Virus record (IMG/VR): IMGVR_UViG_3300037295_000333
Span: 13,537 to 77,536 of that record
Direction: 5' to 3' (one strand)
DNA from: a virus
Lineage: Duplodnaviria; Caudoviricetes
Length of the DNA stretch: 64,000 bases
Positions 21,534-57,147 of the stretch are shown one piece after another. Under the pieces are notes generated by a model. That model was not told the DNA's origin and searched no databases. It saw nothing but the letters and a program-made list of their open reading frames with translations. The translations under genes and the position numbers were made by a program. Numbering within the stretch: the first letter of the stretch is position 1; every line of letters begins with the position of its first letter.

Positions 21534-21557
21534 CTTTTCTATCTATATGGGTGGAGT
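21534..21557 (-). promoter_or_regulatory. candidate phage RNAP promoter, copy 1 (fires leftward into replication genes)
   Basis: Minus strand ACTCCACCCATATAGATAGAAAAG; one of four near-identical copies. Confidence 0.7.
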
Positions 21558-22112
21558 CTAACTCAATCCTTTGATTTTCACTGCGTTAAGATAATTAGAA
21601 AAATTAGTATAATTGTTGTTAAATATGTTCATTTTAAACTTGTTTCCATTCTCCCATTCTTGATGACATTGTAGGCATAAATTATTTATATTTAATAAAT
21701 TGTGCCTTAATTCTGGTGCAATTGATTTTGGAATTACATGACTATAACGCCACCTTGCTATAACTTTTCCATCTTCACCTCTAAAATCTGTGGGCAATTG
21801 TTTATTACACTCTTCGCATTTGTGATTAGATAGATTAAAACTTTGTTCATAAAACTTTTCATCTTCAATTATTGCACTATTTCTTTTCTTTTCATTTGTT
21901 TTCCTTCTTAAAGATTCTTTAAATTCAAATTTAAGCCTATTTTCAGCCGCACTGCTTAACTTTTTATCTTTTTGTATATACTTTGTTGCTTCATTTTTTT
22001 TAACGCCTCTATTTGACTGTAAACGATTATTATTACATATCAAACATAGACCAAAAAAAGCATTCGAAATTTTTTGCTGCTTTTTGCAGTTTTTACATAT
22101 TTTTTCCATCAT
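21558..22112 (-). CDS. HNH/NinG-like endonuclease
   Basis: CKNC...CLIC zinc motif, HKCEEC, YSHVIPK, NINNLCLQCH. Confidence 0.75.
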   Translation of the reverse strand: MMEKICKNCKKQQKISNAFFGLCLICNNNRLQSNRGVKKNEATKYIQKDKKLSSAAENRLKFEFKESLRRKTNEKKRNSAIIEDEKFYEQSFNLSNHKCEECNKQLPTDFRGEDGKVIARWRYSHVIPKSIAPELRHNLLNINNLCLQCHQEWENGNKFKMNIFNNNYTNFSNYLNAVKIKGLS

Positions 22113-22211
22113 TTTTGTCTCTTTTTTTTGTGTAAATATAGGGTAAAAATAACGTTAAAATGAAATTTTTTACTCTTTTTTGTAACTTGTTGATTTTCAA
22201 TGAGTTTCTTA

Positions 22212-22235
22212 ACTCCACTCATATAGATAGAAAAG
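22212..22235 (+). promoter_or_regulatory. candidate phage RNAP promoter, copy 2 (fires rightward, antisense to the holin)
   Basis: Plus strand ACTCCACTCATATAGATAGAAAAG; predicted +1 G at 22226. Confidence 0.65.
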
Positions 22236-22313
22236 AACCCCCTTAAAAAAAACAAGGAATATATAAAAGGGTTTTATAGGGATGAATTATATCAACAATT
22301 CATCCCTTAAAAA

Positions 22314-22853
22314 CTACCCTTTTAAAAGTGATTTAATTTTATTTAAAATACCTTCATTTACTATCTTAATTATTTCATCTAGTAAAATAAAAAGTCGGCT
22401 TTTTTTATCAAACCTAACTTGTTCATTTTCTCCAATAGATTGCAATTCGATTAATACGACATATATCAACATTGTAAACTTTATGGCAAGAAGAATTGAT
22501 GAAATAAATCCAAATAATTCTAATCTTAAAGTTTCTATTTCTAAAGTGTATATAAACCAAATTATAATTGTAAAAATAAAGATTTTTTCAAACGCTCGCC
22601 ACCCACGACCGCTTTCAAATGTAAAGGGTTTTCCTAAATCATTTTTTCTCTTTGTATCTGCCTTAATGCCCGTATGGATGTCAACTATATTTATCCCTAG
22701 AGCTATTAGCCATAGAGTTGAGTTTATTCCAAACAAATATAATGGAGTAATTTGATTAATTGCTCCAATTATACTTGCAAATATAGTTCCAAGACTTGCT
22801 GAAACTATATATAAATCCTTGTGCATTAAGAAGTTTGTTATTAATTGCTTCAT
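22314..22853 (-). CDS. holin (phage holin family 4-like)
   Basis: Several TM segments, VDIHTGIKA, FESGRGWRAFEK, IELQSIGEN. Confidence 0.75.
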   Translation of the reverse strand: MKQLITNFLMHKDLYIVSASLGTIFASIIGAINQITPLYLFGINSTLWLIALGINIVDIHTGIKADTKRKNDLGKPFTFESGRGWRAFEKIFIFTIIIWFIYTLEIETLRLELFGFISSILLAIKFTMLIYVVLIELQSIGENEQVRFDKKSRLFILLDEIIKIVNEGILNKIKSLLKG

Positions 22854-22857
22854 AATG

Positions 22858-23286
22858 TTATTGGTCGTTTAAATCAATTGTAAAGTCGTCTCCACTTTGA
22901 AAAGTGTATGAAAAACGACTTAATTGTGCGGTACTGCTCTCATATCCAGTACTATTTGTTATATCAGCTGTAAATAAAATTGATCCCGTAAAAATAGTTT
23001 TTCTATTATCGGGTAAAAGTGGGTCTTCAATTAAATCTACATCAAAATACCAAGTTCCTACAACAGATTCAAATACAACTCCAAATGAATCTATATAATC
23101 GATAGCCTTTGATTTTGAAAGTATTAGGTAACGATTATTAAGAATTTCAAATGACCTATATGGCTGTAATTTTGGATCTTTTTTCATCCAAGAAGACATT
23201 GTTCCCATATAAGTTTTACCAAGGTCTATAACAAGTTTTTCGCCACGCCTTGCTTTAACTGTTTTTAAATTTGGTAGGTTACTCAT
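22858..23286 (-). CDS. putative virion protein
   Basis: Structural operon context; beta-rich. Confidence 0.5.
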   Translation of the reverse strand: MSNLPNLKTVKARRGEKLVIDLGKTYMGTMSSWMKKDPKLQPYRSFEILNNRYLILSKSKAIDYIDSFGVVFESVVGTWYFDVDLIEDPLLPDNRKTIFTGSILFTADITNSTGYESSTAQLSRFSYTFQSGDDFTIDLNDQ

Positions 23287-23305
23287 ATTTTATTTTTTAA
23301 TTGTT

Positions 23306-23878
23306 TTAAACTGCTGTTGTAATGCTTACAGCTAATTCTGGCATTGAAGTTTCTCTTACAACTGCAATATCTGGAGTAGCTAAAGTAACCACATAAAAGT
23401 TACTATTTTGTGCCCCAGTATAAGCTCTTTCTGCACCTGACATTCTCAACCCTTGATCTGCTCCAAATAATTCATAAAGTCCAGTTGAACGGTCAACTGT
23501 AATTGCAACAACCAAACCTCTTCCTAATGCTTCAATTGTCTTTCTGTCTTTTGCTAATTTACTATAAACGGTAAAAGCAATAGAATGAACGTGTGCAACA
23601 TCTCCATCTTCTTTTATTTCAGGAGTTGAACTAGGTACAACTGAATAATCAGTTCCTTGAAATACATATTGAATTGCTGCTGTTTTTAGTTTAATGGCAG
23701 TCAATCCTTCTTGGTTTTTATTAGCATCATCTATCTCTCTATTTGAAGGTAAAAGAGTAGCAACTTTGTCAAAATCACTATAATTTACTAATATTAAATC
23801 TTTTTCTGCCCCAATGGCAGCATTAACTGTAGCACAATCTCTTAAAATTCCGCTACTTATAACTCTTATACAACCCAT
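23306..23878 (-). CDS. putative major tail tube protein
   Basis: MGC...DC N-terminus, size and position typical of Bacteroidota siphovirus tube proteins; inference. Confidence 0.5.
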   Translation of the reverse strand: MGCIRVISSGILRDCATVNAAIGAEKDLILVNYSDFDKVATLLPSNREIDDANKNQEGLTAIKLKTAAIQYVFQGTDYSVVPSSTPEIKEDGDVAHVHSIAFTVYSKLAKDRKTIEALGRGLVVAITVDRSTGLYELFGADQGLRMSGAERAYTGAQNSNFYVVTLATPDIAVVRETSMPELAVSITTAV

Positions 23879-26898: not shown

Positions 26899-29800
26899 TT
26901 ATATTTTAGTTTTATTTTCTTTAAAAGCAACTTGTGTTTTAAAATCATTATATCTACTTTCTGAAAAAACAATTCCTTGAGACATTCCTCCCCTTGCATT
27001 ATTTGCGGCATTTGCATTTGCATTTGAACCAATTGAAGGGTCAATTCCTAATCTTGCAGCATTGTTTGCAGCTATACTTGAAACTCCAGCTGTGGCAACT
27101 GATGTTGCTGCAGAAGAAATAGATCCACCTCCTGCTCCACCTCCTCCACTTTTTCTTGAAGGAAACCTAACTTTTTTAATATCAGCCAAACCTTTTATAA
27201 TTGGTATTATAGTTGTTGCGGTTTCTGCTGCTTTAAATGCAACTGATAATGGAAATGGATATGGAGACTTAGCTGACCATATATTACTTATTGCTGTAGG
27301 TGCATTCATTATAGCCTGAGCTATTGCAACTTCTCTCTGAATACCAAAAAGCTCTGCAGCTTTATCCATTTGCCTATTAGCCTCCTTTGTCCTTATATCT
27401 CCAATAGACTTTTCTGAAACCGCTACAATCTCACCCCTTGCAGTAGCATATTTATTTATTATATCATTTTTTTGAGATTCCGTAAGCTCAGTATTTTCAA
27501 GTTCTTTTATCTTTTTTGCATCTAAGAAGGTAAAATCTCTAGTTTGTTTATCAATAAGTTGTTGCAATTCTAAAGCAAATGTGTTTTCTCCTTTTAATCT
27601 TTTTGCTTCAAGTTCTTTTTGGTCGGAATCTAATTGTGCTTGCTCTGCTAAATCGTGGTACTTTATGTCAATTAATGCTTTTTCACTTTCGGTCAAATCT
27701 TTTTTAAAAACCTCTGCTTGCCTCTGTCTTTCTAAAAAATCTAATTGTAAGGCTAAAACATTTTCACCATTAGCTTGCCTGTCTTGCAAGTCCTTTTCCT
27801 CTAAAGCAATTTTTGAATCAGACTCTCTTTGCAATCTATTAGCCTTAACTTCATCTTCTAAAACTTGATACCTTCCCCTTATTTCTGCCTTACCTATTTC
27901 AGTAAGTTCATCATTTTGAAGTTCATTATTTTTTCTTCTTTCAAGAAGGTCAATTTGTAATTTATCGGTATTTTCACCCAAAGATTTTCTTCTTTGAATG
28001 TCCATTTCATCAATTTTAGACTGATTGTCAAACTCTAATTTTGCAGCTTTTATTTTTTCGTCTTGAGCCCTTTTTCTTTCAGCTTCAGCTTTTTTTTGTG
28101 CAGCATCTCTTTTTGCCATAGCTTTTTCGTTTGCAGCTATTTCTTTTTCATCTAATCCAGAATCTCCGCCTACAACTCCACCACTTTTTGGCTGTAATGA
28201 TTTTAATGCTGCATTTGCAGCTTGAATTCTTCCACGCCTTACTCCTAAATCTTTGTTAATTTTATCAATGTCCTCTTTTGCTTGAGCTCTATCTTGTCTA
28301 TTAGACCTTTTTAAATTACTTAACTTTAATTTATCTAACTCTTCAAATATTTTTGTTGATTCTTTTAATCTTTTGTTAAGTGTATTGGTTTCTTCAATAG
28401 CTATTTTTTTATTTTCTTCAGCTATTGCCTTTGTTCTTTTTGGATCTAAACCTAAATAAATTTGAGTATCAGCTTTTAATGATTCTCCTGCGGCAATATT
28501 TCTAAGGTCAGAAAAAGTGGCGTTAAATTTAGTTAAAGTGTTAAGTGCTTCGGTAATTATTTGAACTGTTCCTGTAAAGAATTTGCTCAATGCACCATCT
28601 CCATTATTTAAAGATAAAATTAATCCATCAAAAGCTGAACTCATCAAAGTAGTTTGACCTGACAAACTATTTAATTGTTCATCTGCCATTTTTTGTGCAG
28701 CTCCTCCAGCTTCATTTAATGCAATTCCAAGAGCTTCAATTTTAGGTATATTTTTCCCCAAAACAAGAAGTGAAGTAGATGCTGTTCTACCAACTTCATC
28801 CATAGAGTCAGTTACAGAAATTCCATTTTTTGCAATTTCCCTTAAGCCTTCATTAAAAGGTTTTCCAGTTTTTGTAATTTCTGAAAAAATTCGTCTTAAT
28901 GAAGTACCTGCCATTGAACCTTTTATTCCATTGTCAGCTAAAACTCCAAGAAGTGCAGTAGTTTGTTCAATTGGAACGTTTAAAGCATTTGCAACTGGTG
29001 CAACAAATTTCATTGATTCTTTAAAAGTTGTAATGTCTAAAGCCGATGAAGTAAATGATTTAGCCATTACGTCAACAACCCTACCCATTTGAGATGCATC
29101 AAGATTAAATGCACGTAATGTTTGACCTGCAATTAAAGCTGCATTTGCCAAATCTGTGTCAACTGCTGAAGCCAAAGTACTTATTGCCTTTGTAGATGCT
29201 AAAATTTCAGGTTCAGAAAAACCTAATTTACCAAGCTCTTTTTGCAAACCTACAATTTCAGAGGCAGTAAATCTTGTTGTTGCTCCTAGCTCTTTTGCAT
29301 TGTCCGTTAGTCCCTTTATACCTTCTCTATTTGTTCCTAAAGTAGCAGCTAAATCAGCACTTACTTTGTCAAAATCTTTTATTGTATTATATGCACCTTT
29401 TAATACATTTGCAAACAAACTTATTCCTGCAACTAATCCAAAAGCACCAACTAAGTTTTTTACACCTGATGTAAGAGAGCCAATTGTACCACTTATTCCC
29501 TTTGAACTTTTACTAAAATCGCCAACCGCTCTATCTGCTTTTCTTACTTTTGTATCAAGTGTATCAAATTCTTTTTGAGCCTTTTTTATTGCATCTGTAG
29601 AAGCATTTTCACTAGAAATTAAGTCTAGTAACTTTCTTTTTGATTCACTTCTAGCATTAGTAAGTTTATTATATGCACTATTTAAAGTAATACTAGCAGA
29701 AGTTTCTTTTTTAAGGGAAGAATTTAGTCTATCTTCTACTTTAATGCCTGCCTCACTAACTTTTAAAGAATCGAGTTTTGCTTTATTTAATTTATCAAAT

Positions 29801-33100: not shown

Positions 33101-33745
33101 TTAGTTAAAATATGCATATCCGCTAAATGATGCTTTAAATGTTATTGTCACCTGATTGTTATTTATATAGTTAACTTGTCCTATCACATGACTATCTGCT
33201 GTATCTACAACTGTTACAGATGGCTTTTTATCTAGATTATGAGTTATACTCCAAACTGATGATGCGTTGGTTTGATTATAAATAAAATTCTTATCTTGTT
33301 TTATTTTACTTAAAGCTTCATTAATTGTATCTACAGTAGGATATTTATCTCCACTCCCATCTACATCTAAACTATCTTGTTTATTTGATTTACTTTCTTT
33401 TAAGTCTAATTGAGCTTTATTTACTAAATGATTTGGAGATGTTGCTTCAGATGCGGAAACCGTACCATTAAATTGCCCAATTGCTCCGCTTCCATTGTCA
33501 GAAACTTCTCCAAAGAATAACTTTGTTCCTTGTGTAAAAATCGGAGAATCTACTAATCCTGATGGTGAAGTATATGGAACCTTTCCATCTGTAAGGTTTG
33601 AAGGACGAACAAGATTAATTTTTCGTGCCTTAAAACTTGAACCTTCTGAGTCTTGATCTGTATTTGTTGGATCAACAATATGTATCCAAGCTGTGTTTGG
33701 TACTGTTGTTATTTCGGTTAATTCTGTTAATTTTTCTTTTGCCAT
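33101..33745 (-). CDS. minor tail/fibre protein
   Basis: KESKSNKQDSL...KYPTV, C-terminal WSITHNLDKKPSVTVVD domain. Confidence 0.7.
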   Translation of the reverse strand: MAKEKLTELTEITTVPNTAWIHIVDPTNTDQDSEGSSFKARKINLVRPSNLTDGKVPYTSPSGLVDSPIFTQGTKLFFGEVSDNGSGAIGQFNGTVSASEATSPNHLVNKAQLDLKESKSNKQDSLDVDGSGDKYPTVDTINEALSKIKQDKNFIYNQTNASSVWSITHNLDKKPSVTVVDTADSHVIGQVNYINNNQVTITFKASFSGYAYFN

Positions 33746-36007: not shown

Positions 36008-37855
36008 TTATCTTGTTTGATGATTAGACATTGAAATGCTTGAAAGAGTTACTGAAAAATCTCCACCATTTGCAGTATTTTGAAGTGGTGTGGTAGCTGA
36101 TGAAAGTTTCATTACTTCAAGCCTTGATGTTCCATTTTCAGCATATAAAACTATTGGCGATGAATGTATGCCCATCATTGATTTCATTTCTAATAAATTT
36201 AAGTTTAAAGCTTTTAAGTCTAAACTGTATGAAGAGGAAACTGACGTATAGTTCAATGGCACGTATGTTTTACCTCCTAATTTATTTGTACTTTCGAATA
36301 AACCTCCTTGTATCATTCCATTTTCTGATCTTGAGTAATTCTTTTTACTCAAATCCATTCCCCAAAACATCCAGCCTGAAAATCTACTTTTAAAATAAAT
36401 GAACCCTCCACAAGACTCTTTACCATTTCCTAATATTTGCGTATTTTTTGGAGTTATTGTATTTGTTGACCCCAAAATAGTTGAAACTCCTTCAGGCGTT
36501 ATTTTTGAAACATTATTAGATGTAGCATTAGCTGTATAAATATTTCCACTTGTATCAATTGTTATACCTTGAGGGTTTGTTCCCGTTGTTCCCAAAATAG
36601 TTGAAACGCCTTCAGGCGTTATTTTTGAAACGTTATTTGAACTGATATTTGAAGTATAAATGTTATTTGAGCTATCAATTGTAATTGCTTGTGGCAAATC
36701 TCCAGTTGTTCCTAAAATAGTTGAAACGCCTTCAGGAGTTATTTTTGAAACGTTATTTGAATTATAATTGGCGGTATAAATGTTATTTGAGCTATCAACT
36801 GTAATTGCGGTTGGGTTTATTTCTGTATTTCCCAAAATAGTTGAAACTCCTTCAGGCGTTATTTTTGAAACGTTATTTGAATTATAATTGGCGGTATAAA
36901 TGTTATTTGAGATATCAATTGTAATTGCTTGTGGCAAATCTCCAGTTGTTCCTAAAATAGTTGAAACTCCTTCAGGCGTTATTTTTGAAACATTATTAGA
37001 TGTAGCATTAGCTGTATAAATATTTCCACTTGTATCAATTGTTATACCTTGAGGGTTTGTTCCCGTTGTTCCCAAAATAGTTGAAACGCCTTCAGGCGTT
37101 ATTTTTGAAACGTTATTATATGTAGCATTAGCTGTATAAATATTTCCACTTGTATCAATTGTTATACCTTGAGGGTTTGTTCCCGTTGTTCCCAAAATAG
37201 AAAAAAACTCACTTGGAGTTATTTTAGTTACGTTGTTCGAAACTGAATTTGAAGTGTAAATATTTCCATTTGTATCAATTGTTATACCTTGAGGACTTAA
37301 TCCTAAAAATGTATTACCATTTAAAAATGAAAGTTCCGTTTTTATTAATTTTGTATTAAATTTTAAAGCTAAGCTTTCAATGCTAATGCCATATAAATCA
37401 AATTCCGTTAAAGGTTGTGTTTTTTCTACTTTTGGAATAAAATCAATATATTCCCTTCCACCATTTAAAGGAAATTTTTGTATTGCAGTAGGATTTGAAG
37501 TAGTGTCAGTATATATTAGATACTTGTAGTAAAATTTTGATGTTGTTGTATTGCTTGCTAAAATGTCTGAAAAATCAGAAATTTTATAAATATCTGAATC
37601 ATGCAATTGTCTTGTAATTTCCATTAAGTCAAATGATACTGAAATTCCTGAATTAATATCAAAATCTGCATACTTCACTTGTGTACTATTTAATGTTTGA
37701 TTTTCCGCATTGTAAATCTCTATATCTATATACATTTTATTTGCTAGCAAATTGCTTTCAATGACATTAATTCTTAACGGCTCATATATATAACAGTAAG
37801 TTAATGTTGATGTTGCCTCTTGTCCTATTATTTCCGTGTTAATTGTTATTGCCAT
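36008..37855 (-). CDS. virion protein containing seven NHL-like beta-propeller blades
   Basis: 40-aa repeats PQGITIDTSGNIYTANATSNNVSKITPEGVSTILGTTGTN. Confidence 0.85.
   Translation of the reverse strand: MAITINTEIIGQEATSTLTYCYIYEPLRINVIESNLLANKMYIDIEIYNAENQTLNSTQVKYADFDINSGISVSFDLMEITRQLHDSDIYKISDFSDILASNTTTSKFYYKYLIYTDTTSNPTAIQKFPLNGGREYIDFIPKVEKTQPLTEFDLYGISIESLALKFNTKLIKTELSFLNGNTFLGLSPQGITIDTNGNIYTSNSVSNNVTKITPSEFFSILGTTGTNPQGITIDTSGNIYTANATYNNVSKITPEGVSTILGTTGTNPQGITIDTSGNIYTANATSNNVSKITPEGVSTILGTTGDLPQAITIDISNNIYTANYNSNNVSKITPEGVSTILGNTEINPTAITVDSSNNIYTANYNSNNVSKITPEGVSTILGTTGDLPQAITIDSSNNIYTSNISSNNVSKITPEGVSTILGTTGTNPQGITIDTSGNIYTANATSNNVSKITPEGVSTILGSTNTITPKNTQILGNGKESCGGFIYFKSRFSGWMFWGMDLSKKNYSRSENGMIQGGLFESTNKLGGKTYVPLNYTSVSSSYSLDLKALNLNLLEMKSMMGIHSSPIVLYAENGTSRLEVMKLSSATTPLQNTANGGDFSVTLSSISMSNHQTR
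36471..37310. repeat. 120-bp tandem repeat, 7 units
   Basis: TTGAAAC recurs at 36481, 36601, 36721, 36841, 36961 and 37081; units 36481-36600 and 36961-37080 read identical. Confidence 0.95.
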
Positions 37856-42919: not shown

Positions 42920-42997
42920 TGATAAAGAGTCAGGATTCGAACCTGAAAGAATTGGGGTTTTTGTCCACTCGTTTTGCCTACTTAAACTATCTCTCTA
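42920..42997 (-). tRNA. degenerate tRNA-like element (anticodon arm mispaired)
   Basis: TAGAGAG/CTCTTTA acceptor, GTTT-AAGTAGGCA-AAAC D arm, TCAGG-TTCGAAT-CCTGA T arm; anticodon loop ACAAAAA lacks U33. Confidence 0.6.
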
Positions 42998-44610: not shown

Positions 44611-44904
44611 TTATAAACTTGTATATAGTCCTGTAGCTTCAGTAAACAAATTTTGTAACTGATCGCAATAAATATCTTCATAAAGTACTTTAACTTTCTT
44701 TTCAAAGTTTTTATTCATACTATAGAATTCCATTGTATATGTATCCATAGGCGTTAATATTATTTTTAAGTACTTTGCTTTGGACTTATTGGTTTGTATT
44801 GTCATATTGATACCATCACTATATGAACCAAAGTTTTTAGTTCCTGTCATTGCAATAAATTCTCTTCCTCCTAATTGTTCCAATATTGTTTTAGCTACTT
44901 CCAT
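44611..44904 (-). CDS. conserved early phage protein
   Basis: MEVAKTILEQLGGREFIAMTG; under a host-type promoter. Confidence 0.75.
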   Translation of the reverse strand: MEVAKTILEQLGGREFIAMTGTKNFGSYSDGINMTIQTNKSKAKYLKIILTPMDTYTMEFYSMNKNFEKKVKVLYEDIYCDQLQNLFTEATGLYTSL

Positions 44905-44931
44905 CTTTCTAATTTTAATAAAATTTAGTTT

Positions 44932-45141
44932 TTAATTATTTCTATTTAAAAATAATTTTGCATTTCTTTCAGCGTCTCCTAATCTTGCAAACATAGTTGT
45001 GAAAACTAATTTTCCATCTCTCTCCACTTTAAAGAAGGTTCTTTTTGTGCCCTCTTTTAATACCTTTGATACATTTACACTCTCACCTGTTTTTGGGTTG
45101 CTTATTTTAGATACTTTATTTAAGGTAGTGAAAGTTTTCAT
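44932..45141 (-). CDS. small basic early protein
   Basis: ORF track; directly downstream of the promoter at 45175. Confidence 0.7.
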   Translation of the reverse strand: MKTFTTLNKVSKISNPKTGESVNVSKVLKEGTKRTFFKVERDGKLVFTTMFARLGDAERNAKLFLNRNN

Positions 45142-45174
45142 AGTGTCTTTTTTTACTTTGCCTTATTGGCTCTA

Positions 45175-45293
45175 CAAAGATACGAAACTTAATGAGAAAT
45201 CAAATAAAGTTTAATGTTAAAATTTTGTTAAAAATTATTTTAAAAAATAATCAAATAAAAGTATTGTTTATTAAATAAACATTCGTATCTTTG
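45175..45293. promoter_or_regulatory. divergent pair of Bacteroidota sigma promoters
   Basis: Minus TATCTTTG at 45182-45175 and plus TATCTTTG at 45286-45293, each with TTG about 20 nt upstream. Confidence 0.8.
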
Positions 45294-45328
45294 TACCAGC
45301 AATAAAGCTAAACACTAAAACAAATATT

Positions 45329-45496
45329 ATGACAACTATTTCAAACACTACAGCAACACAAACAGCAATTCAATTAGTAATTATGGATGCGATAGAAAAA
45401 GGACACATAAATAAAAACGATTTAATTGAATTTATGAAATCAGAAGTTTTTGAAAAAGCTGTTAAAAACTACGTTAAACTTTTAAAAACACTATAA
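45329..45496 (+). CDS. 55-aa early protein; the only well-supported plus-strand CDS
   Basis: Hand-translated MTTISNTTATQTAIQLVIMDAIEKGHINKNDLIEFMKSEVFEKAVKNYVKLLKTL; follows the plus-strand promoter. Confidence 0.7.
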   Translation: MTTISNTTATQTAIQLVIMDAIEKGHINKNDLIEFMKSEVFEKAVKNYVKLLKTL

Positions 45497-45499
45497 ATG

Positions 45500-47150
45500 A
45501 AAATTCAAAAATATCTAGCAACATTTAGCCTGGCTTTATTGGAAACACTTTATTTAAAAAAATTATTTTTAAAAATAAATGTTAAAAAACTTGTGAGAAC
45601 AAAACTATAGTTGTATCTTTACACTATAATAAAAAGCAAAGTTAAACACTTGAGACGTAGACTCCGTCAAACCTTATAATTAAATCTTGATTTACAAAAA
45701 ACCTTTTTAGTAAAGGTACGTAAAAAATAATGAATAAAAAAATAGGATATTAAAAATATTGTTTTCAAAAATAATCCTTCCGTACAATTTATGTTAATTA
45801 TTTGTTAAAAGTTTGGTTTTTAAAAATATTGTTTTTGCAAATAAACTTTAACAAATGTTATTTTGAAAACCCGATTTTTTGAAATCAAAAGTTTTTGAAA
45901 ATAAATTTGTTTTGTATTATTATATTTTGTATCTTTACGTTGGCGCTTTTTACTTTTTAAAAAAATGAATTTGGAAAAAAGTTTTTTAGTAAAAATACAA
46001 CAAAAATAGTTTTAAAAAAAATAGGATATTAAAAATTTTTAGTTATTAGGTTTTGTTAAATATTGTTTTTGGAAAACTGTTTTTTTAAAAACCAAACTTT
46101 TAACAAAACTTTAACATAAGAGCCACTGAAGAAACTTTATGGAAAGATTAACAAATGTTTTTTGGAAATATGATTTTTTTAAATAACTTTTTAAAATTTG
46201 ACTTATACAAGTTTTTAACAAAACTTTAACACAGAAGCCACTGAAGAATTTAAAACAAATCGGTATCATAAAGTTACGACTTATTTTTGTATTTTACAAA
46301 TTTATTTTTAAAAACTTTTGATTTTAAAAAATCGGATTTTGCAAGTTTTTTTTTAGAAAAGATTTTTGTATAGCTACTATGTATAACATAGTACCGTCCA
46401 CTGAATTTTTGGAAACATATTTTTTTAAATCCTATTTTTTTATTCAATTTTTTTTACGTATCTTTGTAGAAAAAGGATTTTTGTAAATTGGTTTTTTAAA
46501 AAAAAGACTTTTAGTGAAGGTACGAATAAAATTTGTCTTTGACAAACTATTTTATACTTTTGTTTTAAAAATAATTTATGTCCTATATTTATCCAGTTCT
46601 TATACTATATGAAACGATTACAATTTTTACCCCATTTTTGTAGGAAAAATTAAATTTTTGCAAAAACAACGATGTCAATGAGAGTCGCACTTTAGTATAC
46701 TTTTTTTCGGGGTTATATAAAACTTTTTTTGTAGGAAAAATTTTTTAAAAAGTAGGTTTAAAATTAGGATTTGTCGAAAAAAAGTGTATTGTGCAATAAT
46801 GGTGGTCAAAAAATTGGATTTGAAAAATTTTTTTTCAAAATATAAAAATCGCACGTTTTAAAAACTTTTTTTTGTAAAATACTTTTTGATAAAAAAATTA
46901 TCCAAACTTTTCATGACAAATCTTGTCATAAAATAACCTTTTACCGACAATTATTATAAAAAATTACTCTTTGATGGTTTATATTTTTTAAAATCTTTTT
47001 TTTACAAAATATACTATATCAACAACTTACAAAAATTTAAGTGGGAAAAAGTCATAAAAAAAACATATAAAACCTTAAAAATCAAAACAAATCATTTAAA
47101 ACCCTTCTTTTTTCTTTATAATCCTATGCTAATATCTTACTCTATTCTAT
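45500..47150. repeat. AT-rich non-coding region with nested inverted and direct repeats
   Basis: ~70-bp imperfect inverted repeat 45690-45758 / 46418-46488; TTTTAACAAAACTTTAACA..AGCCACTGAAGAA twice (about 46099 and 46213); inverted copy near 45790-45830. Confidence 0.7.
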
Positions 47151-47350
47151 TTACTTTATGATTGATTTATTGTTTTTATTTATTTCTCTTCTTTATTTTT
47201 GTTGTAGTTTATTTTTTTTATTATTCCTTATCTTTATTTTCCATTAAGTTAAACTTTTTATTAAAATCATTTTTAGGCTATTTTAAGGCATTAAAAATTA
47301 TTTTCTATATAAGTAGGCATAAAATGTATTATCTTGTCTTAGAACAGCCT

Positions 47351-47575
47351 TTAAATTACTACAATTTGATTCTCATGCATATTGTTGTTCACCTTTAATC
47401 TCATTCCTTTGTAATAAAAATAATTAGTCTTTTTTATATGAGTTTTATTTACTAGATTTTTAAAGTCTTTCTCGCCCAACATTATTACAGATGGACTTTG
47501 TATGCTTGCTTTTAGATTTGACTTTGATATTAATTCTATCTTTGCCTTAATCTTTCCTTCTAGTATTTTATTCAT
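47351..47575 (-). CDS. hypothetical protein
   Basis: ORF track. Confidence 0.6.
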   Translation of the reverse strand: MNKILEGKIKAKIELISKSNLKASIQSPSVIMLGEKDFKNLVNKTHIKKTNYFYYKGMRLKVNNNMHENQIVVI

Positions 47576-47603
47576 CGTTTGTATTTTATTTTAATTTATA
47601 ATT

Positions 47604-47687
47604 TTGTAGTTGCAATGGATTTGAACCACTATAAATTTAAGCTCCATTCACTTTAACTCCTTTGAGTATTATTTATTTAACAACTCC
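47604..47687 (-). tRNA. degenerate tRNA-like element
   Basis: GGAGTTGT/GCAACTAC acceptor with one mismatch; AGTGG-TTCAAAT-CCATT T arm; no recognisable D or anticodon arm. Confidence 0.45.
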
Positions 47688-47854
47688 ATGAGATACCTCT
47701 CATTTAGGCACATAAGATTAACTTTTTTATGTGAGAAAATTAGTTTTGATAGCTTAGCTTCCGTCCAAGTATCCCAGACATTACTGATTTTTAAGTCTTT
47801 AGACCTTAAGGAGCAGATTCCCTCACGATATAGTTTTTTTGAAATGGTGGTCGC

Positions 47855-47935
47855 TAACCATTTTTGTTGCAGTAAAGGGACTCGAACCCTCTTTTATACC
47901 TATTTTCATGGGTAAGAAATTAAAGTAACCTTACA
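47855..47935 (-). tRNA. degenerate tRNA-like element
   Basis: GAGGG-TTCGAGT-CCCTT T arm then TACTGCA-ACA; 5' half eroded. Confidence 0.4.
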
Positions 47936-48212
47936 CGATTCTCATTTATTTAGTTAACATTATAAATGGTTGTCTTATTCTTTTTATACCACACTCCTTC
48001 GCAAGACTTTCATCAAGCATCCTTATAGCTTAATTAATTAGGCTTTTGGCTGGACTCTACCAATTTTAATTTTTATCAAAGATAAACTAATTTATTTAAT
48101 ATGCTAAATTTATATATGATTTTTATTATAATTATAAATGCGTTGCTGAACTGTTATTTCTTTCGTCTAAGATGAGGCATAGTTCCTTATCGCACTGGTA
48201 CGCATTAATAAA

Positions 48213-48404
48213 TTATTTCATTATATCTTTTAATTGGTTTATTATTGATTGACTTCTTTCTCCCCAAAACATATCACACTTTCCCATTTTTATAGGTGGA
48301 TCTACAAAAAAGGATTGCCTAAACTCTGATTTTTTTGCATTGAATCTATAACATCCGACTTTTAATGGACAATCTTTTCCTGAACACATAGTTATATCTG
48401 CCAT
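48213..48404 (-). CDS. small Cys-rich phage protein
   Basis: MADITMCSGKDCPLKVGCYRF...CDMFW. Confidence 0.7.
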   Translation of the reverse strand: MADITMCSGKDCPLKVGCYRFNAKKSEFRQSFFVDPPIKMGKCDMFWGERSQSIINQLKDIMK

Positions 48405-48471
48405 ACTTTTTGTTGGTATTTACAAACATTAAGTGATTTTTATAGACTTAATGTTATGGTTAGTACTGTTT

Positions 48472-49773
48472 TTATATATATCCTTTTATTCTTCTAGCTT
48501 TACGAACTATTCTAAACTCTCCACCTCTTAAATTTTCTCTAGGTTTACGACTATTAATTCCATATCTTAATGCAGCTAGTTCATCTGGTTCGTGAGGTAG
48601 TTTATTATTTTTATCTCTTCTAAAGGTCATATAAGCATAGTATAGTCCTGAATCTTCACTACCTATCATTACAATTGATTTATCTTGTACTTTCTTTATT
48701 CCTGATTCTACGTTACCCTTTGTACATCTTCTTATTCCACCGTAACCACCTAATCTAATTTCTTCAATTAATAACGGCATGGCAGAATCAGCATATATTT
48801 TAGCCGTAAATGAAACTTCAGCCATTCTTATTTCTCTTAACGTTTGCTTTATAGTTAAGCCTGCCTTTGAAAACATTTCTTGTACATAGTAAGTTTGCTC
48901 AAAGTAAGTAATTTTTATCAAAGAAGTTTTATCTTTTCCTCCATATCCAAAATCCAATCCATACCAAGTATCGCCTTCATTATCAAAGTTATCCCATCTA
49001 TCCCATCCACCATAAATTCTGCCTGAAACTTCTAATGTCCATTCAGCCATAATGGTATTGGTATAGTAAGTTGGATTTGTTTTTTCTAAGTCTCTATATC
49101 TTTTTACTACAGACTCATTTAAATTATCAATATTGTCTAAAAAAGTAGAATGAATATAAATAGTATCATCTAACCTTTCTCTTTTTTCAACTCCTTCTTT
49201 AAACCATTCCTTGTGTATCCAAGACTGTATGGATGAGGTTGGGTTGTAGATTAGAATTATCTTTAATGGTTTTCCCTTTATTCTTATTGATTCATCTACC
49301 TTTGAGAATTCGTCAAAACTTTCAACTTCTTCTGCTTCCTCAACGACTAAAGTTGTTATTCCTGATAGCGACTTTAGTTTTGCGGTTTGTGTTCCCGTTG
49401 ACCTTATGCCCTTAAATATTATTGTTGATCCTGTTTTTTTATTAGTAATTACTCCATTTGCAATTCTAAAATCAGAAGCTAAACCCATTGTTTCAATTGC
49501 ATTTTCTACGTCTGCGATTGTTGAGTCTTCAGAAGATGACATTGTTTGTCTTAAAAATAATATTTTATGTTTATACGGGCTATATGTTTTTTCTACCATA
49601 GCCACGGAGACAGTAAAAGATTTTCCTGATCCACGTCCACCATATACTTGATAATACCTAGGGTCTTCTAAGTTATCTTTAAATAAATCTGAAAACAATG
49701 GATTAATTAATAATTCTTTTATTTCGGGAGCGTTGTCTTTTTCAATTTCTGCATTGGTTCTCCTCTTTGCCAT
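48472..49773 (-). CDS. terL: terminase large subunit (PBSX-like)
   Basis: YGGRGSGKS, LVVEEAEE, IYNP, YGLDFGY, IYADSA, HEPDELAALRY. Confidence 0.95.
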   Translation of the reverse strand: MAKRRTNAEIEKDNAPEIKELLINPLFSDLFKDNLEDPRYYQVYGGRGSGKSFTVSVAMVEKTYSPYKHKILFLRQTMSSSEDSTIADVENAIETMGLASDFRIANGVITNKKTGSTIIFKGIRSTGTQTAKLKSLSGITTLVVEEAEEVESFDEFSKVDESIRIKGKPLKIILIYNPTSSIQSWIHKEWFKEGVEKRERLDDTIYIHSTFLDNIDNLNESVVKRYRDLEKTNPTYYTNTIMAEWTLEVSGRIYGGWDRWDNFDNEGDTWYGLDFGYGGKDKTSLIKITYFEQTYYVQEMFSKAGLTIKQTLREIRMAEVSFTAKIYADSAMPLLIEEIRLGGYGGIRRCTKGNVESGIKKVQDKSIVMIGSEDSGLYYAYMTFRRDKNNKLPHEPDELAALRYGINSRKPRENLRGGEFRIVRKARRIKGYI

Positions 49774-50390: not shown

Positions 50391-50464
50391 TTGGAGATGG
50401 TTCGGGCTTTGAACCCGAATCTTTTCACTTTTGCAATTGCTTTTCCAATTAAGCTATCCATCTC
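50391..50464 (-). tRNA. tRNA-like element with a collapsed 4-nt anticodon loop
   Basis: GAGATGG/CCATCTC acceptor, GCTT-AATTGGAA-AAGC D arm, TCGGG-TTCAAAG-CCCGA T arm, anticodon arm TTGC-AAAA-GTGA. Confidence 0.65.
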
Positions 50465-50802: not shown

Positions 50803-51291
50803 TTATTTTCCTCTATTCTCTTCTCCCCCAAAAACTCTAATTCTAGGCGTTAAATTTTCTTTCTTTACCTTTAAATCATTTGGAGTTTCAATTTGTAAAA
50901 ATTCAAGAATGTCTCCCATATAAACTTCTGCAATAGAATAATACTCAGATGCAGCCATTCTTGTAACATTTTTGTCTGAAGCCTCTTTGTCAATTATATA
51001 GCCTGAATCCGTAAAGGTTCCAGGAAACATTTTCAACAACCTAGAATATGTATAATAACACAATGCAGGTACAACTAAATTATAAAGTTCAATGTCTGCA
51101 GCTAATGTTGCATCAATACATCTTAGTAAATTAGGCTTTCCAATTATTCTTTGTATATCAACCCTTTGTGCTACAAGTGCCGCAGCTTTTAATTTTGTCT
51201 CATCAATGTCAGGCTGTATAGAAGTTGTGTCAACCATAGCATCAACGATATTATGAACAATTAATTGATTTTCATTTAGTATATTGTTCAT
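50803..51291 (-). CDS. putative head-tail adaptor
   Basis: Follows the portal; AQRVDIQRIIG...PALCYYTYSR pattern of Bacteroidota phage adaptors. Confidence 0.6.
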   Translation of the reverse strand: MNNILNENQLIVHNIVDAMVDTTSIQPDIDETKLKAAALVAQRVDIQRIIGKPNLLRCIDATLAADIELYNLVVPALCYYTYSRLLKMFPGTFTDSGYIIDKEASDKNVTRMAASEYYSIAEVYMGDILEFLQIETPNDLKVKKENLTPRIRVFGGEENRGK

Positions 51292-52762: not shown

Positions 52763-53719
52763 CTTGTTTTTGTTTGATGGTTGTGTGACAATATTGTCGT
52801 AATTAATTATTTTGCTTTAATCCCTTAAAAATATGTGCTATGACATCAACTGTCCATCCGTTGCCTATTGCATTTTTTCTAATATTTTCGCTAAACCCTA
52901 ATGTGTAATTATTAGGTAATGTTTGTAGTGACTCCCAATAATTTGAATTAGCCATTTCATAAACCCCCTCGTTATTATAAATGATGCTAGCAGATGTTGT
53001 CTGTCTGTTGCCAGTAGCTGTAAGTGTGGGTGTTTTTTCTTTTAAAATTGACTTATTATATGGGTTGAAAAAACAATTTACAGTTTCCCAGTTAATTAAT
53101 TTTCTATCTACAAATGGAACTACATCAATTTTATTAAACCATTGCTTACGGTATTCTATAACTTTTTTATTATCAATTGACTCTTTTATGTTAGGTATAT
53201 TTGTCCAATACAATCTTGGTCTATTTTGTGCAGAAACAATTCTGCTGTTAATTTTAATAGGCTTCACACCTAATGCTTCTGTAATTATGTTCTCCCACTC
53301 TTTTTTCATTACAACATTTTCAAGTAAAAAATATTTAGGACTACATTCTTTTAAAACTCTAACATATTCCCAAAACAAACCACTTTTGCCTTCAAAACCA
53401 GCGCCATTGCCTACACTTGAAAAACTTTGACAAGGGCTACCCCCAATTAATAAATCTATTTTTGGTAGTTCGTTAGTTTTTAATTCAATAATGTCACCTA
53501 ATTGTTTAGTGTTTGGGTAATTATTCATTGTTATTTTAATTCCATATTTGTCAATTTCACTAGCATAATAGTTATTAACTTTTATTCCCACTCTTTCTAG
53601 TGCAATTTGACCACATGACATTCCATCAAATAATGACAATACATTTATTCCTTCCTTATTTTCCATCTTGTTTTTTGTTTGATGGTTGTGTGGCAATATT
53701 GCCGTAATTTAATTATTTT
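52755..53719. repeat. ~60-bp direct repeat (52755-52813 and 53659-53719) flanking the C5 methyltransferase gene
   Basis: TTTTCCATCTTGTTTT(T)TGTTTGATGGTTGTGTGRCAATATTGYCGTAATT in both copies. Confidence 0.9.
52803..53666 (-). CDS. DNA cytosine-C5 methyltransferase
   Basis: LSLFDGMSCG, IGGSPCQ, LLENV, AQNRPRLYW, IGNGW; start moved to MENKEG at 53666. Confidence 0.93.
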   Translation of the reverse strand: MENKEGINVLSLFDGMSCGQIALERVGIKVNNYYASEIDKYGIKITMNNYPNTKQLGDIIELKTNELPKIDLLIGGSPCQSFSSVGNGAGFEGKSGLFWEYVRVLKECSPKYFLLENVVMKKEWENIITEALGVKPIKINSRIVSAQNRPRLYWTNIPNIKESIDNKKVIEYRKQWFNKIDVVPFVDRKLINWETVNCFFNPYNKSILKEKTPTLTATGNRQTTSASIIYNNEGVYEMANSNYWESLQTLPNNYTLGFSENIRKNAIGNGWTVDVIAHIFKGLKQNN

Positions 53720-53729
53720 TCTTTATATA

Positions 53730-53825
53730 AAATGAGGCAATACCTAGCACTTAGACGTTTTATTCACGGCTATGAATTGTATCTTAATTTTATTTCCTTT
53801 GTGTGCTGACCTCTTCGCCTCATTT
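53730..53825 (-). ncRNA. candidate structured RNA between the phage promoter and the methyltransferase gene
   Basis: AAATGAGGCGA/TTGCCTCATTT closing stem, AGCAC/GTGCT inner stem, ATTCA-TAGCCG-TGAAT hairpin. Confidence 0.4.
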
Positions 53826-53874
53826 ACATATAATTCTAAAGTTATTTTTAATATTAATTGAAATTTAAAAACGA

Positions 53875-53902
53875 CTTTTCTATCTATATGGGTGGAGTTA
53901 AG
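53875..53902 (-). promoter_or_regulatory. candidate phage RNAP promoter, copy 3 (drives MTase-portal-terminase operon)
   Basis: Minus strand CTTAACTCCACCCATATAGATAGAAAAG. Confidence 0.75.
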
Positions 53903-53951
53903 GGAATCTGTTGATAATCAACTATTTACAAATACCCATTTTTATCTAATT

Positions 53952-54913
53952 TTAACTAAAAAACCAATGCGATTTTATTACTAAATCAAAGTCGGTATCG
54001 GTATTTAGTCCTCCTAAATTTGGTATTTTAATTGTATTAATTAATTTTTGACTTGCCTTTGAGTCATCACATTGAGCCCTTAATTGATTGTCTAATGCCT
54101 TCAATGGATTTGACTTCATGAGTGAACTAAACACTTCTTTTGTTATCTCAAGCATTAAGCTAACGTGATTTGGATGACAGCCAAATGAGTCGTGAATCCA
54201 ATCGGTTTGAAATATTCCCTCTTCCTGCATTTTTAAAGCAACTCTTCGCAAAAGTTCAGCATCTAAAGAATGAACATAATTAGGACTAATTGCTGACTTC
54301 ATTTTTACTGGATTAATGTCCTCGGAATATGTTTTTTTCCATATCACTGTTGCTTTTCTTGAGCCTGGCAACAAACATGTAACTTGCTTTGGCTTCAATT
54401 CTTTTTTCTTTACGTGAATAACATGGAAGCCATCTGAGGTGTCCCACGTTATATGCTTGCCCCTTTTAGATATAACATTATTCATCTTGTGAATGTATGC
54501 TTCGAATGCTTTTCCCCCGTTTAAAACTCCAGCAATTGAGTCTCCAACAAACGAACTCAATAAAGATGAATTCTTTTTTGTTATGAACTTTCTATCTATA
54601 TCTTGAGTTCTAAGCATATCCCACATAATTTCTGACCTACCTCCTGCAGTTCCGCCGTAATTTGAAACCATTACTGGTTTTTTACATATTTTTCTTCCAT
54701 CTTTTTCTAAAAGCTGAAATAACGTCTGTAAGGCTTCCAAATTATCTTCTGGGGTAATTTTATCTATTTTTGTTTTTAGTAGCTCTAAAGACCTGCTAGA
54801 TACCAACAAATAGGCGTCCTGCCTTTTTTGTATCCCATACTCATCGTAAATTGGAATTACATTTGTTGCAATACATCCTGCTTTGTCCCCTGTCATTGCG
54901 CTTGTAAATTGTG
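53952..54913 (-). CDS. T7-type single-subunit RNA polymerase, exon 2
   Basis: (S)QFTSAMTGD, motif B RKICKKPVMVSNYGG, SPNYVHSLDA, motif C IHDSFG. Confidence 0.93.
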
Positions 54914-55607
54914 CGTTTGTGTTCAAATGAGTTTGTTAGGCTCACCCTGTTTACTTGATGAAAAGCAACTACTGCATCTTTATCATTGATTGCAGACCAG
55001 ACTATATCTTCACCTTTCTTTTTAGTTAAGGTGTCTCCCGTTTCGAATCACTTGATTCTACGAACTTTCGTTCTAGTCGTTGAAGATTACAAACTAACAC
55101 CTAGCTTTATACCAATCTTTTCCACTACAATATAAACCATTTTTTATGGCGTGTTTTACGTTTTCAATATGACTAACCACTTCTAAGTTATTTAGTCTGT
55201 TGTTATCTGTAACTCCGTCCTTATGATTTACAAACTCACTTTTTAAAAGTTGTCGCCCTATTTGTATTGAAGCTAAAAGTCTATGAACTAAATAGTTTTT
55301 TTGATTGACTTTTATTCTCATATATGGGTTTTTACTTTTACCATAATGAATGTGAGGCTTTAAAGTTTTTAGTTTTAAGCTTTTCTTTGTGCTATAAATT
55401 ACCCCATTTTTATCCGCAAAATAATTTTGCATTTCTGGAATTTGAATAATTTTAATTTGTCTTTCCTGCTGATTGTCCATATTAATTATTTTTACAACTT
55501 TAAAGCAAAATTCATGCCAAAAAATATTAAAACAAAGTTTGAAGGAGTTCCCAGACAATTAAAGAGATTATCTTTTAATATTTCTACCAAAAGGGGCTAC
55601 TAAATTA
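54914..55607 (-). mobile_element. group I intron (694 nt) in the RNAP gene
   Basis: 5' splice after ...TCAGGGT (55608) with IGS GCCCC; P element TTGTCTGGGAACTCC, Q AATCAGCAGG, R TCAACGACTAG, S AAGATATAGTCT; terminal G at 54914; joining restores DACNSG-SQFTSAM in frame (2322 nt, 773 aa). Confidence 0.92.
55094..55480 (-). CDS. intron-encoded HNH homing endonuclease
   Basis: LVHRLLA...FVNHKDGVTDNNRLNNLEVVSHIEN; lies between the Q and R elements; start moved to MDNQQ at 55480. Confidence 0.9.
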   Translation of the reverse strand: MDNQQERQIKIIQIPEMQNYFADKNGVIYSTKKSLKLKTLKPHIHYGKSKNPYMRIKVNQKNYLVHRLLASIQIGRQLLKSEFVNHKDGVTDNNRLNNLEVVSHIENVKHAIKNGLYCSGKDWYKARC

Positions 55608-56967
55608 ACCCTGAATTACACGCATCGAGATGAACCCTGCCTTTAAATAAATAGTTTTTGTCTTTCAAAAACTCTTTTAATTCTAGTTGATGAGAAAGGA
55701 ATTGGTAAGGCTCATCGGCTTCCATGTAGTTCGCTTCAATTAGTTCCCTTCCTCTTTCAACTCTATGAATAAATGCAATCTTGTCGTCTCCAAAGAGTGA
55801 TGCTAAATAAGCCCACGCCCAACTTTCTCCGCTTTCTGTAAGGATTTCGCCATCGGTATAATCAATCATTGACTTTATTGCATCTGACCCTTGAGGTGAA
55901 AGTCCAACTGAAATAGGATAAATTCTACCTCTAGAGTCATAAGAATGAGGAAAATAAATATGTTCTTCATCTCTATATCTGTTTGCAATTCCAATTGCTA
56001 ATTGAACTGCTCTATATTTTCCTACCGCAGATTCATAATCTCTCACCTCTGCATTGTATAGTTCAACTAATGAGCCGTATTTATCTCTCGCTTTTTTTAT
56101 TTGATCCGCTTCTTGTTCACTAAGTTTTTCATCCTTAATATCTTGTTCCCAATTTGAATCCGTACTATCAGGGTATTCTGATTTTACATAATCTTCTCTA
56201 TTTGGAATCTTAATATCTTGAATAACAATGTCTAGCATTTTAGTATTGATTTTCCAACTAACTGACTGTATGTAATTTACCGTATCGAATATCTTTTTAG
56301 AATACTTTGAATAGTTTACTTTTCCTGCTCTAGACCTAATTAAATCATATTGAAAAGTATGATAGCCTCCTAAAATAGAACCATCTTCATCAATATTCCA
56401 TTCTAAAGGCTTGATAACAATAGGCTCAGGAAAGAAAGCAATGTGTGCATCTGCTGCCAATTTGACAGTAATCGTTTCGGGCAAAGTGCATATATATCTT
56501 AAATGCGTGTAAATTTTAGCATCTTTAAAAAGAGATTGCCTTTGAACTTCAAAATATTGGCTTGCTTCAACCAAAACTTCTAAGAATCTCCAAGTAATGT
56601 CGAATGATAATTCAGGCATCACCTTTTTTTGAATTAAATTAACTCGCTTATGTCTTGTTGATGATTTTCCATTAAACTCACGGGACGTGTAAGAAGATAA
56701 TGTTAACAACAACATGGTGTCCATAATCTTTTGTAAAAGGAGTTGGTCGTCCACAAAGTAATCTTGTAATTGCTTTCGGTGAATGTTTGAACACTTACTT
56801 TCTATCCAGTCTCTAATCACTTCCACCAACTCTATGGATTCAGTCATTAAAAGTTGTTGACCCAATTGTGTCTGTCCTACCTTTTTAAAAGACCCGTTAC
56901 TTGATGAAATGTTTTTCCAAACTTTTTTTTCGCCCTTTGATTTCATTTCTTTTTCAAAATCGCACAT
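55608..56967 (-). CDS. T7-type single-subunit RNA polymerase, exon 1
   Basis: PLEW...GGY, DSRGRIYP, LSPQGSDAIKSMI, EADEPYQFL, motif A HLDACNSG. Confidence 0.93.
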
Positions 56968-57120
56968 TTTTTTATTTTTTAGATTGTTTTTAATTTACAA
57001 ATTAACTCTATTTTATTTTAAATACCTATTTTTAAACCTTTTTATTTGTTTAACAATTATTCTACTTCATATATCCCTATAAATACTATATATATACTCC
57101 CTTTTTTTTCAAGGGGGGTG

Positions 57121-57147
57121 TTTTCTATCTATATGAGTGGAGTTAAG
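57121..57147 (-). promoter_or_regulatory. candidate phage RNAP promoter, copy 4 (upstream of the RNAP gene itself)
   Basis: Minus strand CTTAACTCCACTCATATAGATAGAAAA. Confidence 0.7.

Follow-up and report, generated by a model that had tools for sequence, protein, structure and literature searches.

A four-copy motif as the predicted promoter of a T7-type RNA polymerase in a Cbastvirus-like phage

The promoters of phages T7, T3 and SP6, which are used by RNA polymerases of the single-subunit type (ssRNAPs) from the Autographiviridae, are about 23 bp long and are present as several near-identical intergenic copies in a genome that also encodes the polymerase. They combine an upstream recognition part with an A/T-rich segment at -4..-1 (TATA), a G at +1 and a purine-rich initial transcript. 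The main text of a 2025 mining study of 1,757 ssRNAP-encoding phage genomes describes T7-, KP34-, phiKMV- and Syn5-like promoter categories and gives 741 genomes without a definite prediction (PMC11880802); its logic, the same as that followed here, relies on repeated intergenic motifs in ssRNAP-encoding genomes, and specificity is ascribed to the loop around T7 positions 746-758. The stretch of DNA analyzed in the present work (the window) comprises 64,000 nucleotides, bases 13537-77536 of the single 77,536-bp virus record IMGVR_UViG_3300037295_000333 of IMG/VR, a marine-type phage genome that is rated 96% complete. It carries both a gene for a T7-type RNA polymerase (RNAP) and a four-copy motif with the layout outlined above, down to a candidate G at +1. 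The four copies are very probably the cognate promoters of the phage's own enzyme, because related phages have their own versions of the motif at the same places.

The four copies and their counterparts in related phages

The motif is a 23-mer, ACTCCACYCATATAGATAGAAAA, with exact matches at 21535-21557(-), 22212-22234(+), 53876-53898(-) and 57121-57143(-), four in the window; its only variable base is Y, which is C at 21535 and 53876 and T at 22212 and 57121. The initial annotation had described a four-copy repeat with a single variable position, placed between genes or at gene ends, and on both counts the exact search agrees with it; its sites were right, although three of them had been drawn one base too long. 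All four cores lie outside open reading frames (ORFs), the 21535 copy beginning directly 3' of the TAG stop of a 184-aa Zn-finger/HNH-like gene (21558..22112, minus strand) and having its upstream part within coding sequence. No further site was found in the window when up to three mismatches were allowed, and 100 dinucleotide-preserving shuffles gave no match to the 23-mer (expected count, 0). A scan of the full genome for more copies, which had been proposed earlier, was run over all 77,536 bp with up to five mismatches and returned only the same four sites. The conserved stretch exceeds the 23-mer, reading CTTAACTCC in three copies and GTTAGACTCC at 21535, and its layout, CTTAACTCCACYCA-TATA-GATAG, consists of an upstream recognition part, an A/T-rich melting part and then a purine. 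Nearly all ORFs of the genome are on the minus strand, and three of the copies are co-oriented with the genes that follow them, the 22212(+) copy being antisense.

The closest records are the Cellulophaga phages phiST, phi13:1 and phi19:2 and the Tenacibaculum phage Larrie, all of the genus Cbastvirus, with 47-49% identity over the N-terminal part of the RNAP. Gene order is largely common to this phage and these relatives, and the genome is best classified as that of a Cbastvirus-like phage related to phiST and Larrie; megablast of 10 kb against phage records gave no match. A search of IMG/VR with a three-row RNAP alignment, used in place of a four-row alignment that had no usable block, provided 17 further loci with RNAP C-terminal parts 56-72% identical, among which are the near-complete genomes G001 (locus L005), G002 (L018) and G003 (L010/L011). 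A single-protein search of IMG/VR found no relatives, and an exact-pattern scan of the same database for the core gave no match. The pattern ACTCCAC-N6-7-GATAGAAAA, scanned against metagenomes, gave 120 single matches, none in a relative, and tblastn with all ORFs gave one weak, unrelated match.

The relatives possess motifs of their own. In phiST, a blind count of repeated 13-mers yields CTTAACTCGATAC on the coding strand, and six sites of the form CTTAACTCGAT(A/G)C-WWWA-GAWRA are present, at 15996 (5' of the RNAP gene), at 11867 (3' of the RNAP gene, before the portal and terminase genes), at 50857 (between CGPG_00073, the homologue of the Zn-finger/HNH-like gene, and CGPG_00072) and three times at 71604-72409, ahead of structural genes. 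Larrie carries TTTAAGTCTACAGATAA|GAAGAAA 5' of its RNAP gene and 5' of its portal module, and, between its counterparts of CGPG_00073 and CGPG_00072, TTTAACTCTACCCATAA|GATAAC, its sites lying at 33729 before the RNAP gene, at 27186 after it and at 69100 before the exonuclease gene. Comparison of the RNAP-gene flanks within each IMG/VR locus, made without reference to the motif of this phage, produced a pair in L012 (CTTTACTCCACA-YMTAT|GATA), in G001 (ACTC(A/C)ATACATAA|GA(A/T)GAAAAAGC) and in L013 (TTGACTGGTCTATTAT|GAAGAAAC). G003 has GYTAACCTTCATATAATA|GAAGA after its RNAP gene and, identically, between its Zn-finger/HNH-like and exonuclease genes; G002 has TCCATACTATAT|GAA after its RNAP gene and beside its Zn-finger/HNH-like gene; and L014 has TCCATACTATAA|GATAAA after its RNAP gene. 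Most of the relatives' sites were found without the motif described here, the two sites of L021 having been located by the pattern TTAACTC and not being independent of it; a blind comparison of 16-mers, all against all, among the relatives was discarded as too noisy. G002 (L090/L018) additionally contains a repeat of more than 60 nt, TTTTGACTACTCTCATACTGACCAGGAATTTCCTGTGTTAGGAGAG..., near its Zn-finger/HNH-like gene and after its RNAP gene, close to the promoter motifs.

When the sites are ordered by position, a motif precedes the RNAP gene in phiST, Larrie, L012, G001, L013 and L021, follows it in phiST, Larrie, L012, G001, G003, G002 and L014, and stands between the Zn-finger/HNH-like homologue and the exonuclease gene in phiST, Larrie, G001 and G003. 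Since homologous boundaries in the relatives carry motifs of their own, three of the four copies studied here sit at shared sites. The motif is private to its lineage in nine relatives (phiST, Larrie, G001/L005, G003/L010, G002/L018, L012, L013, L014 and L021); in a recurrence test of nine cores, from which that of L014 was left out, eight recur in no other lineage's locus, and the core of L021 has one match each in phiST and Larrie. The architecture behind these diverged sequences is common: 21 sites from seven relatives, aligned at GA, have A-C-T, usually A-C-T-C, at -13..-10, with a T/A-rich stretch before it that often includes TTAA, followed by a variable centre, a W-rich -4..-1 segment and GAWRA at +1..+5. 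An nhmmer profile built from these 21 sites (-22..+12), with this phage left out, placed the four copies as hits 1-4 on both strands of the genome. The proposal that the copies are cognate promoters is thus strengthened by relatives whose diverged RNAPs go with diverged motifs of a common architecture, placed at matching gene boundaries where the flanks are available, and by a profile of those motifs which picks out the four copies.

The same comparison bears on a different origin, in which the copies are the ends or recombination modules of a mobile cassette around the HNH-like gene at 21558-22112 and have no promoter role. The copies at 21535(-) and 22212(+) are inverted and flank this gene, and the other two flank an RNAP gene with an HNH insert, as such a cassette would have it. 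Yet the flanked gene is syntenic in phiST, Larrie, G001, G002 and G003. G001 has exactly four copies, all in the sense orientation, two of which flank the RNAP gene and two the Zn-finger/HNH-like gene, the latter pair being direct and not inverted; in phiST and G003 this gene has a copy at only one of its sides, and in L012 and G001 the copies flank RNAP genes that contain no intron. A mobile cassette is accordingly a very unlikely source of the motif.

The interrupted polymerase gene and the start register

The RNAP gene is divided into two parts on the minus strand. Exon 1 (55608..56967), the N-terminal part, ends in ...HLDACNSG and was delimited by its match to phrog_414 (E 2e-60) and by alignment with intron-less homologues; the corresponding 455-aa ORF, 55600-56967, covers positions 157-516 of this full-length phage RNAP family. 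Exon 2 (53952..54913) codes for the palm, the fingers and the specificity loop, as indicated by Pfam RNA_pol (E 1.7e-34), phrog_414 (E 6e-67, the 324-aa ORF at 53952-54926 covering positions 517-816), the alignment with T7 RNAP and matches in the PDB. Between the two lies a 694-nt intervening sequence (54914..55607), situated in RNAP motif A, which carries an HNH endonuclease ORF at 55094-55558. When aligned with the homologues of phiST and Larrie, which are uninterrupted, the gene has its break inside HLDACNSG|SQFTSA, and on the minus strand the junction reads ...AATTCAGGGT | insert ... ACAAACG | CACAATTTACAAGC.... The predicted join of 55608 to 54913 restores NSGSQFTSA in frame, as in the intron-less relatives, and gives a protein of 773 aa. 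With T as the last base of the 5' exon and G as that of the insert, the boundaries resemble those of group I introns, and the insert would be removed by splicing. The spliced 773-aa RNAP assumed in the initial annotation is in keeping with both the alignment to homologues and the in-frame junction.

Aligned with T7 RNAP, the columns of T7 residues D537, K631, Y639, R756, H811 and D812 show conservation of 90% or more, and exon 2 retains the equivalents of K631, Y639, R756, H811 and D812. The genome has one ssRNAP gene only, and a search of the genome for sigma-70 region 2 detected none. A phmmer comparison of the C-terminal part, 53952-54911(-), with solved structures gave human mitochondrial RNAP at E 7e-14 and T7 RNAP at E 1.5e-9, mitochondrial RNAPs being the best solved-structure matches of this part.

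In the specificity loop all members have K in place of T7 R746, retain R at R756 and have V or I at N748. The position of T7 Q758 is more variable, being A in this phage, Q in phiST, K in Larrie, L012 and L021, E in L013, I in G001 and S in G003. L014 and L018 possess near-identical loops together with a common core, TCCATACTATA, a likeness which agrees with co-divergence of enzyme and promoter and is confounded with shared ancestry. No code linking loop residues to bases of the promoter centre could be derived from about ten enzymes.

If the copies are promoters, the ssRNAP would be active as a 773-aa enzyme once the HNH-bearing insert has been spliced out; by analogy with T7, it would bind the duplex upstream part, CTTAACTCCACYC, melt TATA and initiate on the G of GATAG or on the preceding A, producing RNAs that begin (A)GAUAGAAAA. 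The copy at 57121..57143(-), which belongs to a class with Y=T (class A) and lies 154 nt 5' of the RNAP start codon, would head the RNAP gene and could thereby provide positive feedback of the enzyme on its own expression. The copy at 53876..53898(-), of the class with Y=C (class B) and 53 nt past the RNAP stop, stands at the head of the C5-methylase, portal and terminase module and would probably serve the whole late region, because no other copy occurs before 22314. The second class B copy, 21535..21557(-), heads a 79-aa ORF, a DUF4942 gene, an exonuclease gene and the replication genes, which it is predicted to transcribe. The remaining class A copy, 22212..22234(+), would be an inverted duplicate of the RNAP-gene promoter module, and its RNA would be convergent with the end of the late operon.

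A number of observations weigh against this interpretation. Function of the RNAP depends on a predicted splicing event, and the Rfam match of the insert to Intron_gpI is below the gathering score (17.5 bits, E 0.07). No simple rule relating the residue at the Q758 position to the promoter centre was found among about ten enzymes. The nhmmer scores of the four copies, 5.7-8.8 bits (E 0.25-2.4), are individually not significant, and only their ranking carries weight, because shuffled genomes reach similar maxima. The 22212(+) copy is directed away from the gene at 21558-22112, antisense into the ORF at 22314-22853(-), and faces no gene. Only three copies face genes: those of the RNAP, of the methylase, portal and terminase, and of the small ORF, DUF4942, exonuclease and replication; these take in the RNAP gene and the portal/terminase and replication operons, which the initial annotation had named as driven by the copies. 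The leaders are long, 90-220 nt, and a literature search for promoters of phiST, Larrie or Cbastvirus found no description.

Lastly, the distance from ACTCCAC to GATAG is one base greater than in L012, the relative with the closest core; in the other relatives, too, ACT lies one base nearer GA, with the exception of G003, in which the spacing is as in this phage. T7 RNAP sets its start by the distance from the binding region, and the start could therefore be A and not G. The copies at 21535, 22212, 53876 and 57121 may thus start at A 21544, 22225, 53885 and 57130, respectively, instead of G 21543, 22226, 53884 and 57129: the G of TATA|GATAG, which had been proposed as the start, is still a candidate, but the A one base upstream has become another. 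This register shift is one of three extras that are left unexplained by cognate promoters, the others being the inverted fourth copy and a palindrome upstream of the motif.

Copy classes, leaders and upstream signals

The two classes of copy also differ in their leaders. In the class A pair (57121 and 22212) both leaders contain runs of C, A (A8) and G, and the 9-mer TATAGGGAT falls near +49..+57 in each, with a downstream identity of 50/73 compared to about 50% for other pairs; the class B pair (53876 and 21535) has GAAAAGT-NN-TTTT in common. The pairing in G001 is alike, in that the sites before the two genes, RNAP and Zn-finger/HNH-like, go together, as do the sites after them. L013 and L021 have an AAAG-N-TTTT leader at their second sites, and Larrie and L012 have one at their post-RNAP sites. 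By analogy, the two classes recall those T7 promoter classes which differ in timing or strength, and a similar division of labor might apply here. The inversion of the 22212(+) copy is judged to be specific to the lineage of this phage, because the equivalent copy of G001 is sense-oriented and would drive the Zn-finger/HNH-like gene.

Two further elements were observed in the leader that follows the 53876 copy. A perfect palindrome, GGCAATATTGCC, is located at 53692-53703, and the ATG of the first gene past this promoter follows about 25 nt later; the same GGCAATATTGCC, followed by (A/G)CA-AACC, also precedes the first gene past the matching promoter of Larrie, L021 has the near-identical GGTAATATTGCC, and the element may be an operator or a translational control site. 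The post-RNAP promoter leaders of this phage (window positions ~53740-53830, minus strand) and of L012 (~2860-2940) have in common the non-coding blocks GCACACAA ... GCCGTGAA-AAACGT ... GTG-TAGGTAT, which could represent a conserved structured leader RNA.

The ORF entered in antisense by the 22212(+) copy (22314..22853, minus strand) codes for a 179-aa hydrophobic protein and is the last gene of the late module, as supported by codon-position statistics and by phrog_14595 (E 1e-7); the protein matches no Pfam family. Its identity as a holin was considered and set aside, since it has no Pfam family and resembles the Larrie holin only to a non-significant degree, and it is called here only a membrane protein. 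The overlapping plus-strand ORF, 22282-22755, was likewise rejected as a real gene, its frequency of G at codon position 1 being 0.13 as against 0.20-0.40 in six minus-strand reference genes; the ORF at 22314-22853(-) does better, with 0.23.

At the 3' end of the same gene, and 53 nt past the plus-strand start, is a 10-bp perfect hairpin (22279..22306; 11 pairs in the fold), which is mostly responsible for the folding of the predicted plus-strand RNA, 22226-22310, at -21.7 kcal/mol (z -3.8). Such a strong hairpin beside the 22212 copy, with a divergent pair of copies at a module boundary, would be in line with replication or packaging signals, or with RNA-processing or termination sites, and the origins of T7 do include phage promoters. 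The core itself, however, contains no hairpin, the predicted leaders of the three other copies fold no better than shuffled sequence, and four dispersed, gene-oriented copies are unlike a pac or cos site; signals of this kind are therefore highly improbable as the function of the motif.

Cognate promoters are thus still preferred, and their upstream surroundings contain a further conserved element, the palindrome TGA-N3-TCA. It is present as TGATTATCA at 57156..57164 (~-27..-35 of the 57121 copy) and at 53912..53920 (~-28..-36 of the 53876 copy), as TGATTTTCA at 22191..22199 (~-27..-35 of the 22212 copy) and as TGAAAATCA, read on the minus strand, at 21572..21580 (~-29..-37 of the 21535 copy), in the last case within the 3' end of the gene at 21558-22112. 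TGA-N3-TCA occurs 35 times in the genome, and each of the four copies has one 27-37 nt 5' of +1, its start falling at -35..-37; among the relatives it accompanies 7 of the 21 sites, in five phages, and always starts at -35 or -36. Its centre variants, TTA, TTT, AAA and GTA, are not compensatory, and the element therefore looks like a protein-binding site and not an RNA hairpin. None of the explanations tested accounts for it.

The palindrome is also the reason why the strongest alternative to a cognate promoter is a late promoter or operator for the host RNAP, in which a phage-encoded dimeric regulator binds TGA-N3-TCA and the 23-mer is its extended site. The fixed position of an otherwise infrequent element and its non-compensatory variants both suit a bound protein of this type. 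Host-type promoters occur at other sites of this genome and are recognized by the recurrent minus-strand word TATCTTTGATAAAAA, with TTG 19-20 nt upstream (TGG and TTA in two cases) and an ATG about 20 nt later in all but one; the layout TTG-N19-TAnnTTTG is that of Bacteroidota sigma-A promoters (-33 TTG, -7 TAnnTTTG). The -7 boxes are at 7709-7723, 9485-9499, 15831-15845, 48070-48084 and 63537-63551 of the window and at 9794-9808 of the genome, all on the minus strand, the box at 15831..15845 exemplifying the class with TTG-N19-TATCTTTG and an ATG about 20 nt on. The replication region contains most copies of TATCTTTGATAAAAA, and a word resembling it, TATCTTTATCAAA, is present in phiST.

The 23-mer and its flanks lack the TTG-N19-TAnnTTTG layout, although true matches to it exist elsewhere in the genome, and on this comparison the four-copy motif is taken as a second class of signal, distinct from the host-type set. 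Moreover, no sigma domain was found, many of the relatives' sites without a palindrome nevertheless keep the core, the core is built like T7-type promoters, in phiST and G002 as far as ACTATA|G, and all genomes examined have an ssRNAP gene along with the motif. Transcription of the motif by the host enzyme is thus unlikely, and the Bacteroidota-type promoters would serve other genes, mainly in the replication region.

Within the preferred reading, a more elaborate and rather doubtful scheme may be put forward, whereby the ssRNAP promoters of this clade would be composite and regulated. A putative dimeric factor on the palindrome (~-36..-28) would gate the ssRNAP, loosely like the upstream-bound factors of mitochondrial RNAPs, and the antisense, convergent RNA of the 22212(+) copy over the 3' end of the late operon would determine the end point of late transcription or when lysis occurs.

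Several other features of the genome were observed. The stretch at 44904-48472 is a 3.5-kb region without an ORF of at least 80 aa, in which promoter-like units, TTTTTAATATCCTATTTTTTT... followed by TAnnTTT(A/G), are repeated on both strands, and the region may have early or regulatory functions or serve as an origin. The ORF at 36008-37855(-), a 615-aa gene of the structural module, contains at ~36471-37294 about seven tandem copies of a 120-nt (40-aa) unit, as seen from k-mer spacing. A tRNA at 50394-50463(-) is reported by Rfam (32.4 bits) and not by ARAGORN, and a tRNA-Phe with the unusual anticodon AAA at 42921-42997(-) by ARAGORN and not by Rfam.

Comparison with known promoter systems

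The prediction of ssRNAP promoters from repeated motifs is routine, and the main result will therefore be expected, and not surprising, to the specialist. If confirmed, it would define the promoter for a previously uncharacterized branch of T7-type RNAPs, the known Cbastvirus-like members of which infect marine Flavobacteriia; in its main text, the 2025 mining study makes no mention of Cellulophaga, Tenacibaculum or Flavobacteria phages, although phiST may still be in its dataset (PMC11880802). The comparison of relatives also supplies candidate promoters for about nine more enzymes, that is, candidate orthogonal pairs with A/T-rich promoters and A-rich initial transcripts, which may be useful in low-GC hosts, Bacteroidota for example, for which few T7-style expression tools exist. 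It further offers a transcription map that can be tested, in which the phage promoters form two classes, the replication region has promoters of the host type and about 31 kb of late genes depend on one phage promoter.

The motif is thus interpreted as a promoter of the T7 type whose recognition sequence is new, from a group of phages that has received little study. The Bacteroidota sigma-A promoters are found in the same genome, on the same strand and likewise upstream of genes, and differ from it in sequence, architecture and sites. Compared to the promoters of T7, T3 and SP6, the recognition part is CTTAACTCCACYC instead of TAATACGACTCAC, and the initial transcript is A-rich, GATAGAAAA, instead of GGGAGA. 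The initial annotation had considered the upstream sequence to be unlike these promoters, which is correct for the recognition part of this phage, but the family as a whole is not wholly unlike them: phiST has ACTATA|GAAGAG, within CTTAACTCGATACTATA|GAAGAG, which matches the T7 and SP6 consensus from -6 to +1 and that of SP6 also to +6. Only four copies are present in 77.5 kb, each with TGA-N3-TCA at about -36..-28, and the phage that carries them is Cbastvirus-like, has polymerase genes of the DnaE type and is related to phages of Flavobacteriia. The enzyme itself differs from T7 RNAP in its length of 773 aa, its identity of about 25% and its interruption by an intron-like insert, yet it keeps the equivalents of D537, K631, Y639, R756 and D812.

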